Shown here: piece by piece, positions 10,076-47,040 of the stretch
How positions within the stretch are numbered: the stretch's first letter is position 1
Layout of the letters: each line of letters starts with the position of its first letter
DNA from: Okamejei kenojei
Taxonomy: Eukaryota
Assembly: GCA_035221665.1 (NCBI GenBank)
Contig: CM069168.1
Span: forward strand, 6,386,001-6,450,000
Direction: 5' to 3'
DNA length: 64,000 nt
The notes under the pieces: model-generated
Seen by the model: only the letters and a program-made list of their open reading frames with translations
Databases searched by the model: none
Told to the model about the DNA's origin: nothing
Made by a program: the position numbers and the translations under genes

Positions 10076-11827
10076 GAAGCAAAATGCTGAAGGAACTCAG
10101 TGGGTCAGGCAGCATCTGTGGAAGCAGAAGCATTATCGATGTTTCTGGGTGAGACCCTGCAATAGGAACTGAATTCTTCCACTGGTTGTCTTTCCAGATT
10201 CCAGTCTCAGGTCTTCAGATGAAAGACACTTCCTCCAATTTTGCACCATTCCTTCGCTACCTGACTTTGATGCAGAGACAACAACCTGGCTACTCAACAC
10301 CCGGCTTGAGATCTAACTATTCCTTTCGTTTATGTTTCATTCGCAAGAGGAAGACTACTTGGCTGAAGTGTCAGCCTGGATTTTGTGCGCATGTTGCTGT
10401 GACAAAGGACTGCACTCGTCCAAAATTTACCAAAAGCCCTGCTTGCATATCAAAATTAGATTAAACATTTCCTGTATAGCAGAAACATGAAGCTATAATT
10501 GATCACAAAAGCAATTTGAAACCCAGCATCATTGTAACAATGTAAGAAAAGAAACTGCAGATGATGGTTTATACCAAAGATAGACATGGGGGCATAGCAG
10601 TAGAGCTACTGACTTATAGAGCCAGAGACCCGGGTTCGATCCTGAGTATGGGTGCTGTCTGTACGGAGTTTGTACGTTCTCTCCGTGACGTGCGTGTGTG
10701 TTCTCCGGGTGATTCTATTATCTATTAGCTTTGGTTTCCTCCCACACTCCAAAGATGTACAGGTTTGCAGGTTAATTGGCTTGTATAAATGTAAAACTGT
10801 CTCCATTATGCGTAGGGTAGTGTTAATGTGCAAGGATCGCTGGTCGGTACTGACTCGGTGGGCTGAAGGGCCTGTTTCCGCATTGTATCTCTAAACTAAA
10901 CTGAACTAAGCAAAATGCTGGAGTAACTCAGCAAATCAGGCATCATCTCTGGAGAAAATGGGTAGGTGGTGTTTCGAGTTTAATCAGACATCTTCAGCCT
11001 AAAGGGTCCTGACCCGAAACGTCAACCCATCCATTTTCTCCAGAGATGATGCATGACCCACTGAGTCACTGCATTTTGTGTCTATCATTTGAAAAATACT
11101 TCTGGATGAGCAGCTAGATTACTGTTTTGACCAGAACCTTTACTTGAGAACACCAAGACTCCCTGGAAGGGTCTCGACCAGAAATGTCACCCATTCCTTC
11201 TCTCCAGATATGCTGGCTATCCCGCTGAGTTACTCCAGCATTTTGTGTCTATCTTCGAAACGTTGGTCTTTTCAAAAAGCGATTGACATTAACCACTGAA
11301 AAATTATCCTAGTAATAGTCATTGTATTAATGTTGCCGTTAGTTTAAACTAGTTTAGATGTAGCATTGTCCACGCCGACCAGCGATCGTCCATTCACACA
11401 CCGTTCTACACACCTTACGCCATAGGCGCAATGTACAGAGTCCAATTACCCTACAAACCCAAAGCTCTATGGGATGTGGGAGGAAACCGGAGCATCCAGA
11501 GGAAACCCACACGGCCACAGGGAGAACGTGCAGACTCCACACAGACAGCATCAGGGGTCAGGATTGAACCTGGGTTACTGGCGCAGTGAAACAGCGACTC
11601 TAACAGCTGTGCCACTGTGCCATTCTAACCAACTACTTTTTCGGATATGTCCCAGACTCGGTCCTGAAACCCATCTGTAAATCGTCCAAACAATAAAGTG
11701 CTGGAGGAGCTCAGAGGGTCAAGTACCATCTGTGGAGGGAAATAGACTGGCAAAGTTTCTGGTCAGGATCCTTCTTCAACCTCAATCTGAAACATCGCCT
11801 GTCCATACCATTCTCACTCAGGCCTAC

Positions 11828-11899
11828 CTTTAGAGTACGATATCTCTCATTCTGGAGTATATTTCCAACTTCACTACAAGTTCCATCTTCAAGGATTTC
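11828..11899 (-). CDS. POLM: POLM coding exon 5
   Basis: 72 nt, AG/GT; EILEDGTCSEVGNILQNERYRTLK. Confidence 0.92.
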
Positions 11900-12042
11900 C
11901 TGCAGCAAAGAATAAGGAGACTTTTCTTCATTTCTTGCAAATAGCCAGAACAGCAACTCTCAATCTTGACATTTGCTAATCTTAATTTTTCCTCTGGAAA
12001 GTAATTTCCTTTTTCTGCATCAACATTAAGACTTAAGTGACT

Positions 12043-12181
12043 TCTTCTTCTTGCGTATGGCGTGCACGGCCTGAAGTTGTCGGACAACTTGTTCTATTTG
12101 ATGTTATTTGATTGTGCGCGGCAGGTTGATTGCATTCGTCGAAACAGGGCGGACCACGTGAAGGTTGCAATCTCCCACCCC
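12043..12181 (-). mobile_element. Short non-autonomous retroposon (RTE-type (GAA)n tail) with a ribozyme head
   Basis: Exact 12-bp TSD ACTTAAGTGACT (12031-12042, 12182-12193); minus-strand 3' end ...CATACGCAAGAAGAAGA. Confidence 0.85.
12128..12181 (-). ncRNA. Minimal HDV-like (CPEB3-like) self-cleaving ribozyme, predicted
   Basis: GGGGTGG(P1) GA GATTGCA(P2) ACC(P3) TTCACGT(L3) GGT(P3') CCGCCCT(P1', G1.U wobble) GTTTCGA C GAA TGCAATC(P2'); P4 absent. Confidence 0.8.
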
Positions 12182-12284
12182 ACTTAAGTGACTACAATGG
12201 AAGTACTAGTCCATATAATTAGCAGTTATTCTGCTGGATATCCAAGGAATGTGACAGACCATAGGAATCATATCATGCCATTAC

Positions 12285-12455
12285 CTTAATCACCTTTCTG
12301 GAATGGACGCCAAGACTGGGAATCCCTTGAAGGTCTTCCATTTTGGTCACGGTGTACGGCAAAGACTTTAGAATTGAGGATGCTCTTGAGAATGCCAAGT
12401 ATCGCCCTTCACTCTCACTTAACTCTGCACTTTCAGCCAGAACATTCAATGCTTC
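12285..12455 (-). CDS. POLM: POLM coding exon 4 (8-kDa domain)
   Basis: 171 nt, AG/GT; EALNVLAESAELSESEGRYLAFSRASSILKSLPYTVTKMEDLQGIPSLGVHSRKVIK. Confidence 0.92.
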
Positions 12456-27669: not shown

Positions 27670-29481
27670 TTAAACCTCAATTTCAAGCTCCTTCAGTTCG
27701 AATTGAAGTAACATTCTCCTAATCTCCTCTTCCTGTGGATCCTGGACCTTCCCTGGTCCCATTATCATTATTTTCTGTATTACCCCTTTCTCTCCCATAG
27801 GCACGACTACAGCCTGCATCTGACTTATACTCCTTGCAATAAGTTCCCTAAAACAAGGGATACAACAGGGGATAAAGATCAGCCCAGCCAATGCACATAG
27901 AAACATGAGCCACCGTTCTCCACCATGTTCCTCGGAGGATGGAATCCCACCATCGGGTTCCCATAATCGAATTCCACTTTTGTATGGGAACAAGTGCCAA
28001 CTTACGGATTCCTTCTGATATGTCAATCACTGCCTGTCCGTTGTCATCGATGTTTAGACAGCAATTAGAGAGGTTGAATTTCCCGCATACCCCTCCTTCT
28101 TCTGCCAGGAGGTAATCTAGGGCCAACCGGTTCTGGTATATTGCTGCTCTCATCTGTGTCTGCTGCTTTGCCAGCATCTCCAGTGCCCCCGCAGTTTGGT
28201 TGGTAATTACCTCCAGTACTGCCTGAAGTCTTATGATCCAGTTTAACATGTATACTGGTGTTCGGTAGCCCCAGGATCCATCCTTTGCCCAAGTGGCTGG
28301 TCCATAGTATGAGATGATTCTTGCGGGAGGCCATTCATCATCTTCCCATTCTCCAATGTCTATTTTCCCCTTCTTCCGATATAGGTCGTCAAATACAGGT
28401 GTTCCTAGCGACCGCCCTTCTTCGGTGTTTAACAGGAAAAATCCCAGTTGTACCAGTCCAATAAAGCAAGTCCCGCTCCAATTTGTCGGTAACACCGAGT
28501 ATGCCTTGTATCCGCATATCCATAACAGTCCTTCAGGGGCCGGTCCACTAGAGCTAACCTTGTTCCATATGTCTCGCAACACCGGGATTCCTTGATAAGG
28601 GTTGTTCCCGGTGCAGTTCCATAGTCCAGTCGATTCCATTCCATTGGTCTTCATCCAGAGCAGTTTCTCCTGTCTTTCTTAGTTGGATACCGTTTAGGCT
28701 CCTCTGGCCACCACACTCGGGACTGATTTGGCCACTGGGTGATGATGCGCTGGCAGGGGCTGCTGCCGACTAGGATGGCATCCCTTGCCCAGGGCCTAGC
28801 GATACACTCAGTCCCAACCAGAGCATCTGTCAGGACCCATGCCTGGGGATCTCGGTCTTGTCCAACTGTCAGGTTCCACTCCATCAGGTCCCATACTTCA
28901 ACAATGGATCCTCTCCACGGCCAACGTGAGCTCATCAGTGGTCCGCCACAGACCCAACAGTTAGTCACATTCAGGGTTCCAGCTATCCGGAGGGCCAAGT
29001 CCACAAACAGGTTTTTCCCTCCTTCAGAGATCTCAATCTGCTTCTTTATGTCTTCATACATTGTCTGGTGCAATTGAGGCTGAGTAGGTGGGGGAGGGGG
29101 AGGCTTGGTGACTACTACTTTCGTTAACCTTGTTATTACTTCCTCCTTCATTTTGTCTAATGTCCATCTTAAGGCATGGAAAGGGAGACCTAACTGTCCT
29201 GTCCTAGTCATACAAACCCATCTCTCCCCCTTTGGGCAGGTAACATACCCAAACCTCCCTACATATCCCCTATTCTCTACCATATAACTTCTTTCCCCCG
29301 TCCTCACAAATAGTTCTAGTCCTCAGGTTATAGCAAGAATCGATCACATGGGAATGATAGGTAAATGATCTGGTTGTCTGCCCTCCGTATCTGATAGGAT
29401 GATAACATTTATCACAGTTATTAATACTTTTTTTACCACAATTACATGCAGAGCAAGCAATACCACGACTGCTCCTTTCAT
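27670..29481 (-). pseudogene. env: ERV env (ERV3/HERV-I-like gamma-type), frameshifted
   Basis: Signal-like MKGAVVVLLALHVIVV at 29481; NLFVDLALRIAGTLNVTNCWVCGG (CXXC); YYGPATWAKDGSWGYRTP; ISD YQNRLALDYLLAEEGGVC; CX6CC CGKFNLSNCC; TM anchor; split by about 4 frameshifts; furin site reads RKKG. Confidence 0.9.
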
Positions 29482-29497
29482 ACTGCTAGTTATACAT

Positions 29498-30620
29498 TTA
29501 TTTTTTTCTAAAAGTTAATGTTAGGGGCTTATTGGCTGGCTTCACCATCCACTGTTCCTCTTTATGAGGAGCGGGTGGGTCAACAGGTCCTTTAACCCGA
29601 ATTGCGTGGGTCCACCCTTTTTCTTTTGTTCGTACTGCTGTCTCGGTTGTCAGTAATACTAGGTATGGGCCGATCCACCGGGGCTGGAGTTTCTCCTCCT
29701 TCCAATTCTTGACCAGTACCCAGTCGTCGGCCTTTACAGCGAGTGGTGGGCTTTGAGCCAATAATCCTTTAGCTTTTAATTCTGTAAGAGAACGAGATAC
29801 TGCCAGTAAATAGTTCCTTAAGAATGCATCACTGCCCTCTATGGTGGGTATTCCTTCTATCTTCCCAAATAAGGTAACCCAAACAACATTTCATAGGGGG
29901 ATACTGCGAACTTTGCATGCGGTCTCCATTGCTTTTCTCAAAGCCTTTCTGTTTCCCCACTGCTCCAAAAGTGTGCCATGTACATATGCTGCTCTTAAAG
30001 CCTTAATTTCTGCCAACTGAGCTAAGCAAGATTGCAGGCAAGCTTCCAATTTGATTACCTTAAAGTCTAATTCATCCTGATGCATCACTTCAAACCCTGC
30101 ATACTTGCTATTATGATCCCTTTAACAAGAAACATCCACAAGCAAAACCTTCTTGTCCCCTTCATTCAAAGGCTCGGACTGTAAAGCATTTCTCAGACTT
30201 GTGTGTCCTTCTTCCTTCATTGTTTTCCTTAATGGCATCACAATTTCAACATGCTTCCCAATCTAGTCTGAACTATATCCTGCCATTCCCAAGATCATCA
30301 TCATCTGTTTTACTGTCTGAGGTTTGGGAACTTCAATTATCGCTTCAATTTGATCCTGCGCTATAGCTTTTACTTCTTTAGATATTACTTGTCCAAAATA
30401 TTCTACCTGCTGCTGACAAAACAACAACTTCTTCCTTTATACATTATGACCTCTTGTGCCATCCTTTCCAAGATAATTACAATGTCTCTCTCTCACATTG
30501 CTTCTCACTTGTGGAACAAACCAACAATCATCCACATACTATATCAACACCTTCCAAATCTGCCTACAACACCTGATTAAAAACATGGGGCTAGTATTTC
30601 AAACCCTGCCACATCCTAGC
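29498..30620 (-). pseudogene. pol: ERV pol remnant (RT, RNase H, IN pieces) with large internal deletions
   Basis: YVDD (~30530), QVEYFGQVISK...PKPQTVKQMMMILGMAGYS, AQLAEIKAL (RNase H), YEMLFGLPYLG and DWVLVKNWKEEKLQPRWIGPYLVLLTTETAVRT (IN C-terminus); stops and frameshifts. Confidence 0.85.
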
Positions 30621-46339: not shown

Positions 46340-47040
46340 CAACGCGACCAGACCATTGGTGGGCACGGTCCCTTTTATGCTAATGTATCTCAAAGGGGCG
46401 GGACAACTAATGCGAATGGTTGTCTGAGGCGGACGTCGGCTGCGTGGCGCCGCTGATTGGCTGTGCGGCCGTCACTCAGCCGCGGCCCCGCCCGCCCGCG
46501 GTGTTAAAGCGCGGCGCTGCCGGAGGGCGGCGCTGTGGAGCGGAGGCAGGCAGCCGGAGACAAGCGCAGTCCCGTCCCGGCGCGTCTGCTCCAGGTGGCC
46601 GGTTCGATCCCCGCATCGCCTCCTCCTCCCCACCGTCCGTCCGCCCGCGGAACTCGCCCCGTTTGCCATGAAGCTGAAGCTGAAGCTGGCAGCCTTTCTG
46701 CTGCTGCTGGCGGCGTGCTGCGGCTCGGGCCGCTGCGCCGGGAGGAACATCGTGCTGATACTGGCGGACGATCAGGACGTGGAGCTGGGAGGAATGGTAG
46801 GTGGGTGGGTGGGTGGGGAGGTAGGTGGTGCCAGGTGGAGCCCGCCTCTCCGCGGGGCAGCTGCAACTTCAGCCCCAGGCACCTCCGCTAGGCGCCGAGC
46901 CTCGCAAGGAGACCGGCGGCGGGAGTGGGACAGCCAGGCGACGTTTCGGGACGGGGTTCCCTTGGTGGGACACCCACAGTGTCCCAGTCCCTTCGCCGGA
47001 CCTTCTCCCTCCACGGGTGAAGCGCCCTGGTTCGTTTCGT
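46340..47040 (+). promoter_or_regulatory. CpG-island promoter of the GNS-like gene
   Basis: Inverted CCAAT boxes (ATTGG at ~46355 and ~46457), GC boxes (GGGGCGGG ~46395, CCCCGCCC ~46486), high CpG density across exon 1. Confidence 0.75.
46668..46796 (+). CDS. GNS: N-acetylglucosamine-6-sulfatase (GNS-like), coding exon 1
   Basis: GCCATG start; signal peptide MKLKLKLAAFLLLLAACCGSGRCAG then the sulfatase motif RNIVLILADDQDVELGGM; donor ATG|GTAGGT; ortholog vs paralog status uncertain. Confidence 0.85.

Follow-up and report, generated by a model that had tools for sequence, protein, structure and literature searches.

We found that the fourth intron of the DNA polymerase mu gene (POLM) of the skate Okamejei kenojei carries one copy of an abundant 140-nt retroposon whose head is predicted to fold as a minimal HDV-like ribozyme. 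This copy is probably a tolerated, likely folded-shut passenger, and its predicted ribozyme would rarely cut POLM pre-mRNA. The orientation bias of the sister copies, set against control repeats, and a predicted competing helix just past the ribozyme core are the new contribution of the POLM window; by window we mean the whole stretch of DNA analyzed, 64,000 nucleotides in length. The features that the argument needs are these:

12285–12455, minus strand: POLM coding exon 4, 171 nt, found by homology (tblastn); an RNA-like contig links it to exons 3 and 5
11900–12284, minus strand: POLM intron 4, 385 nt, GT..AG; 234 nt at the empty site
11828–11899, minus strand: POLM coding exon 5, 72 nt, found by tblastn and present in the spliced contig
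12042–12181, minus strand: whole non-autonomous retroposon, 140 nt, with ribozyme head, short body and (GAA)n tail
12128–12181, minus strand: predicted minimal HDV-like ribozyme fold, 54 nt, from sequence and descriptor; predicted cut 5' of 12181
12119–12124, minus strand: CCUGCC blocking strand, element positions 58–63 including C61, predicted to pair with positions 3–8 of the P1 5' strand
12182–12193, minus strand: 5' repeat of the 12-bp target-site duplication, with no difference listed for organism B, C or E
12031–12042, minus strand: 3' repeat of the 12-bp target-site duplication, overlapping the tail by its first base; changed at one position in organism D

With tblastn, seven coding exons of the host gene were placed on the minus strand, from 25612 to 3156, and the exon at 12455–12285 is the fourth. 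This exon matches, at 98% identity, a skate protein named DNA polymerase mu; 13 of its 14 homologue matches bear this name, the remaining one being nameless. We took the name from these closer homologues because a comparison with PDB entries alone placed the exon marginally closer to TdT than to Pol μ. Exons 4 and 5 share a single open frame. The predicted ribozyme head at 12181 lies in sense to POLM, 103 nt below the exon 4 donor and 282 nt above the acceptor. An earlier note on this DNA had described a ribozyme-like fold in sense in a short POLM intron, about 100 nt below the donor, and our coordinates (12284–11900 for the intron, 12181 for the head) agree with it; its corollary that every POLM pre-mRNA carries the motif in sense is likewise supported.

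A search of both strands of the window with an HDV descriptor gave 12181–12128 on the minus strand as the sole match. The predicted fold contains a P1 of 7 bp (positions 1–7 with 30–36) with a G1.U36 wobble at the predicted cut site, a J1/2 at positions 8–9, a P2 of 7 bp (10–16 with 48–54), a P3 of 3 bp (17–19 with 27–29), an L3 at 20–26 that includes U20.G25, and a P1.1 consisting of the single pair C22–G37. P4 is absent, with 5 nt in its place, and the predicted catalytic C44 (window position 12138) begins J4/2 and is followed by GAA. The numbering of G1.U36, U20.G25 and C22 coincides with that given for the CPEB3 ribozyme (PMC4836649). The head thus has the P1, P2, P3, L3, P1.1, catalytic C and missing P4 that define a minimal HDV-like ribozyme, and cleavage is predicted. 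Across 31 close, near-identical copies the pairing holds in 98.2% of cells, compared with 22–44% when the alignment is slid, and a covariation check on these copies found both-sided changes in 0 of 18 pairs. The fold was assigned from base-pairing and conserved positions, independently of any library match or folding z-score; the z-score of the core (+0.92) is uninformative here, as the folding program cannot fold pseudoknots. An Rfam scan of the window returned no match at the gathering score and a scan of intron 4 returned no ribozyme match even at E ≤ 10, so that membership of the POLM head in RF00622 was rejected. The one match in these scans, to rliB (E 6.6), was set aside as chance.

The fold is the 5' end of a larger unit. 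A target-site duplication, a feature absent from the earlier note and perfect over 12 bp, brackets 140 nt of sequence, and the genome contains 7,539 exact 28-nt heads and 470 exact 53-nt cores; 28 further BLAST matches to the element, some of them pieces of one copy, occur in the 1.78 Mb of flanks. With its target-site duplication, microsatellite tail, dispersed high copy number and lack of an ORF, the element is a bipartite non-autonomous non-LTR retroposon. Among 100 exact-core copies that we read, 94 start at the G of position 1, and a perfect duplication of at least 6 nt flanks 63. ARAGORN predicted no tRNA gene, and the element begins at G1 of the fold; a tRNA-derived SINE identity was therefore rejected. 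No autonomous parent was found among the flanks read. Two exact-core copies about 270 kb apart (L103 and L104) have near-identical flanks and therefore reflect a segmental duplication, not two insertions. We found no published description of the skate element or of a POLM ribozyme in a literature search whose scope lay outside subscription journals and Repbase.

The insertion is shared among relatives. Both junctions occur in organisms B, C and E and the 3' junction occurs in organism D, where the 5' junction lacks contig cover, and hence the insertion predates these lineages and is not confined to a single species. The element side of the junction contigs is 23–27 letters long, under the 31-letter bridging rule, and runs beyond the duplication, where an empty site reads differently. 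Flanks of the insertion differ by about 2–3% among the related organisms. Their contigs reach at most positions 1–27 of the core, and near the contig ends we counted, without listed positions, two unplaced differences each in B and E and one in C. In B and E the contigs pass without a branch through a 31-mer that has 40 places in the genome, which suggests that the heads of these two copies may have changed at positions 6–18.

In the window itself, the POLM copy shows no difference from the exact-core pattern over the 54 core positions and six rare differences over the 80 tail positions (one-sided p = 0.042), a contrast weakened because the window was picked for its intact core. All six tail differences (window 12042–12127, minus strand) change a base to C or G; one explanation could be GC-biased conversion on a small chromosome. 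The closest other copy is 97% alike, and C61, C64 and C79 of the POLM copy each occur in 1–2% of 154 tails. Daughter copies sharing its private changes were sought and none was found, so that the POLM copy was rejected as a source of new copies. This also weakens the proposal of the earlier note that element RNA is released in POLM-expressing cells. We rejected C61 as a subfamily marker as well; in the 18 other copies with C61 the change seems to have arisen independently, and these copies do not share the set of changes seen in the POLM copy.

We examined how copies of the family are oriented within host genes. The sample comprised about 203 distinct loci, 29 of them 3 kb long and the others 10 kb, in which repeats were masked and exons predicted with a predictor that scored six of the seven POLM exons above 22. 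Pfam was run on 600 exon candidates, namely 450 of the 2,148 in a first list (a total that counts those of the window itself) and 150 of the 1,651 in a second, and 30 of the 600 were rescanned. A locus was counted when it had a non-transposon Pfam match at E ≤ 0.005. We dropped retroelement matches (RVT_1, RNase H, gag protease and a coiled-coil ORF in L062), candidates with no Pfam match, and, at L054, a weak Diedel match opposite a strong IRS match. The resulting 20 loci contain five sense and 15 antisense copies (p = 0.041), a small sample in which the exon was confirmed on one side only for some copies. The ratio becomes 6:17 when three weak Pfam matches are added (p = 0.035) and 11:23 when 11 provisionally named genes are added (p = 0.058); Pfam gave no confirmation for five of the provisionally named host exons.

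Control repeats in the same 34 loci are balanced, at 33:30, 43:45 and 32:29, or 108:104 when pooled, and Fisher tests against the pooled controls give p = 0.034 for 5:15 and p = 0.063 for 11:23. One repeat that served as an orientation control lies in POLM intron 5 (window 11391–11622, minus strand); it is SINE-like and tRNA-headed, and we take it to be V-SINE-like. The earlier note had asked for the insertion to be looked for in related organisms and for the sense/antisense bias of the copies, and had named a species-specific insertion without orientation bias as evidence against its reading; what we found is an insertion shared with B, C, D and E and a modest antisense bias.

Sense copies reside in five Pfam-confirmed host genes, or 11 with weak Pfam matches and provisionally named genes included. 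Beyond POLM, those near acceptors are at L158 (513 nt above a predicted acceptor), L153 (332 nt above a predicted acceptor, in a host gene whose call is our assumption), L030 and L024. Among the antisense copies, one with an exact core lies about 30 nt from an Ig-domain exon (L152:4970–5141) and another lies inside a 1.1-kb intron of an SCML-type gene (L142:4537–5658). The GAA repeat of the tail resembles a splicing enhancer, and the head contains a cryptic donor-like site that scores 5.8, compared with 7.4 for the real donor; the antisense bias could instead stem from either of these. Where intronic transposons lean antisense, the usual interpretation is that sense copies are selected against (PMC3088655; PMC3517506), and the modest bias here would therefore reflect selection against sense copies, not for them. 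Sense copies seem to have been purged, and the bias is a hint that the family cuts in vivo.

Whether the POLM copy could cut its host transcript depends on the time it is given. For the mouse Cpeb3 ribozyme the next exon is 9,931 nt away and the half-life is 2–3 min, and slow intronic ribozymes are reported to have no effect on splicing (PMC10919898, which cites Fong 2009 for the latter). In POLM 282 nt separate the predicted cut site from the acceptor, a race distance 35 times shorter than in CPEB3, and polymerase would cross it in 4–5 s at mammalian rates of 3.5–4.1 knt/min or in 17 s at an assumed 1 knt/min. By simple arithmetic, a CPEB3-like rate would leave 2–8% of POLM pre-mRNA cut within 5–17 s, a range that shifts if the rate of this ribozyme differs. 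Half would be cut if the intron lingered for 150 s with a half-life of 150 s.

Folding predictions bear on the same question. The core with 50 nt of upstream sequence has a predicted P1 probability of 0.90, above most copies, and as long as the 3' flank has yet to emerge few copies have a more permissive context than POLM, the penalty being lower in only 3 of 94 others. Adding 15 nt of 3' flank takes the P1 probability from 0.90 to 0.00, as positions 58–63 pair with positions 3–8 and extend P2. With this 3' flank, the native-fold penalty of the POLM copy exceeds that of 94/94 other copies without upstream flank and that of 89/94 when 50 nt of upstream sequence is included. In a wider span (100 nt upstream, 40 nt downstream) it is 7.7, ordinary among sense copies; these penalties are meaningful as rankings only, because the folding program omits the pseudoknot. 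The competing strand emerges 9 nt past the core, in under a second. Its helix depends on the rare change G61C: C61 is present in about 1% of exact-core copies, CCTGCC occurs in 0 of the 100 exact-core copies read, and the 36-mer with C61 has 19 places genome-wide. In this model, the POLM copy is likely folded shut by the competing helix. A broader tendency for the sense copies that survive to be folded shut more than the antisense copies was unsupported (9 versus 21 copies, p = 0.31–0.87). Furthermore, run X15 of organism A, presumed to be RNA, contains one 1,672-nt contig that joins exons 3, 4 and 5 exactly and differs from the window at three exon positions. Splicing of exons 3-4-5 therefore succeeds; a single contig gives no fraction of transcripts cut.

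These observations fit a mechanism in which the 140-nt retroposon inserted in sense into POLM intron 4. The family head would be a P4-less HDV-type ribozyme that cuts the element free from read-through host transcripts, and new copies would begin at G1 through this cleavage. Sense intronic copies would be partly purged because cutting pre-mRNA costs the host. Two circumstances likely explain why the POLM copy survived: once the fold has appeared, Pol II needs only seconds to get to the acceptor, and the competing helix (58–63 with 3–8), arising 9 nt past the core, takes the P1 strand. More than 7,500 copies and the predicted folded-shut state make a passenger likely rather than a switch.

In the nearest rival reading, a noticeable share of POLM pre-mRNAs might be cut, releasing element RNA at a cost that the host bears and with no selection for the cutting. 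The head has every catalytic position, rapid cleavage in vitro is documented for some minimal HDV-like ribozymes (a theta ribozyme, in one case, exceeds 10 per min at 10 mM Mg2+; 10.1101/2023.06.13.544163), and the arithmetic above allows half to be cut in a lingering intron. The longer an intron lingers, however, the more the competing helix is predicted to win, and the genome shows no trace of released element RNA in the form of daughters: the best other copy is 97% alike, C61, C64 and C79 are rare, and the other C61 copies do not share its set of changes. We regard such leakage as unlikely. It is very unlikely, in turn, that the whole family is inactive, with a head that no longer cuts and an antisense bias arising from splice-like signals on the sense strand or from chance. 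The borderline orientation bias, the missing compensatory changes among the 31 close copies, the silence of Rfam, the cryptic donor-like site and the enhancer-like GAA tail would all be in keeping with this. The start at G1 in 94 of 100 copies is as expected if cleavage sets the 5' end, however, and together with the absence of a tRNA head by ARAGORN and the alignment of all defining positions with CPEB3 numbering (PMC4836649) it argues against an inactive family.

The least probable reading, likewise very unlikely, is that of a domesticated CPEB3-like regulator, a ribozyme that competes with exon 4–5 splicing and is kept to tune POLM, possibly with the 58–63 helix as its switch. The earlier note had proposed such a cut-versus-splice arrangement, and part of it stands: the motif is in sense in every pre-mRNA, within a short intron, the insertion persists across five organisms (A–E), and the core is intact while the tail drifts (p = 0.042). 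The permissive upstream flank and the Cpeb3 precedent (PMC10919898) would also suit it. The tuned role itself fares poorly. The ribozyme has a head start of seconds only in a race 35 times shorter, other sense copies exist and sense copies are depleted overall, the B and E copies may, on indirect grounds, have changed heads, the fold is predicted shut, and a spliced contig is found. An intact sense copy in some short intron is, moreover, expected because sister copies number thousands, 470 of them with exact cores. A wider scenario, which we think quite unlikely, is that an active P4-less HDV ribozyme family seeded thousands of self-cutting sites in skate introns, that selection removes most sense copies, and that in each survivor a single flanking change creates a competing helix which silences or tunes it, so that the POLM copy would be a snapshot of a retroposon head becoming a CPEB3-style regulator.

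As a regulator of POLM the copy is probably of no importance, and the family matters more. It places hundreds of identical ribozyme heads at varied intron positions and in varied flanks of one vertebrate genome, a ready-made set in which to ask under what conditions self-cleavage within an intron is harmful to splicing. If the orientation bias holds on an annotated genome, it would be population-level evidence for in vivo cutting by minimal ribozymes. Two other features of the POLM neighborhood may be recorded. Just upstream of POLM exon 1 (28819–29779, minus strand) are endogenous-retrovirus-like fragments, with an MLV-type integrase C-terminal domain (Pfam E 1e-10) followed by a stretch that has no fitting Pfam match and is presumably env-like. 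At about 46660–46790 on the plus strand, pointing away from POLM, lies a GC-rich first exon with a signal peptide and a sulfatase-like start; it has no Pfam match, and we take it to be GNS-like.

The same genome also contains repeats with CPEB3-like heads. Of 42 places listed, 30 pass the Rfam CPEB3 gathering score, the best with 66.8 bits, and these repeats, at least 30 in number above the threshold, bear on the origin of the mammalian CPEB3 ribozyme. Those at L209–L218 (for example L214:1501–1575, plus strand) score as CPEB3 with a full P4, and L209, L212 and L214 are about 91% alike for 250 nt downstream of the head. The broken ORFs downstream in L214 we assume to be endonuclease- and RT-like; Pfam gave no match on them. 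The CPEB3-headed element at L214 and the POLM-intron element show no significant similarity.

Compared with known systems, the POLM head resembles the CPEB3 ribozyme (RF00622) in its HDV-type fold and its sense, intronic position (PMC10919898; PMC4836649), and it shares G1.U36, U20.G25, a seven-base L3 and the CGAA of J4/2 with the Rfam consensus. It differs in having no P4 and no Rfam match, in belonging to a retroposon of thousands of copies, in lying 282 rather than 9,931 nt from the next exon, and in being traced in close relatives only. P4 loss defines the minimal HDV-like ribozymes, and the theta ribozymes among them are, like the skate head, about 55 nt long and P4-less, with the catalytic C first in J4/2; they are described from gut phages, beside tRNAs, with cleavage demonstrated, whereas the skate head belongs to an animal retroposon and its cleavage is predicted from sequence (10.1101/2023.06.13.544163). 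The element as a whole is closest in build to the bipartite non-autonomous LINEs and SIDEs (R2 SIDEs, NARTc, RIME and Vingi-1_EE derivatives), which are likewise short, have neither an ORF nor a tRNA head, and share the microsatellite tail, the target duplication and a predicted HDV-like 5' end (PMC5786205; PMC6765202). Elements of this kind are described there as transcribed from introns and cut free by the ribozyme, and their ribozymes are proposed to free them from co-transcripts (PMC6765202). The skate element differs from them in that its head is a minimal P4-less ribozyme and its host a vertebrate. Judged by distance and predicted folding, a CPEB3-like action of the POLM copy on its host gene is unlikely, and the skate head would work, if active as predicted, like an HDV-class, 5'-processing ribozyme of a retroposon.
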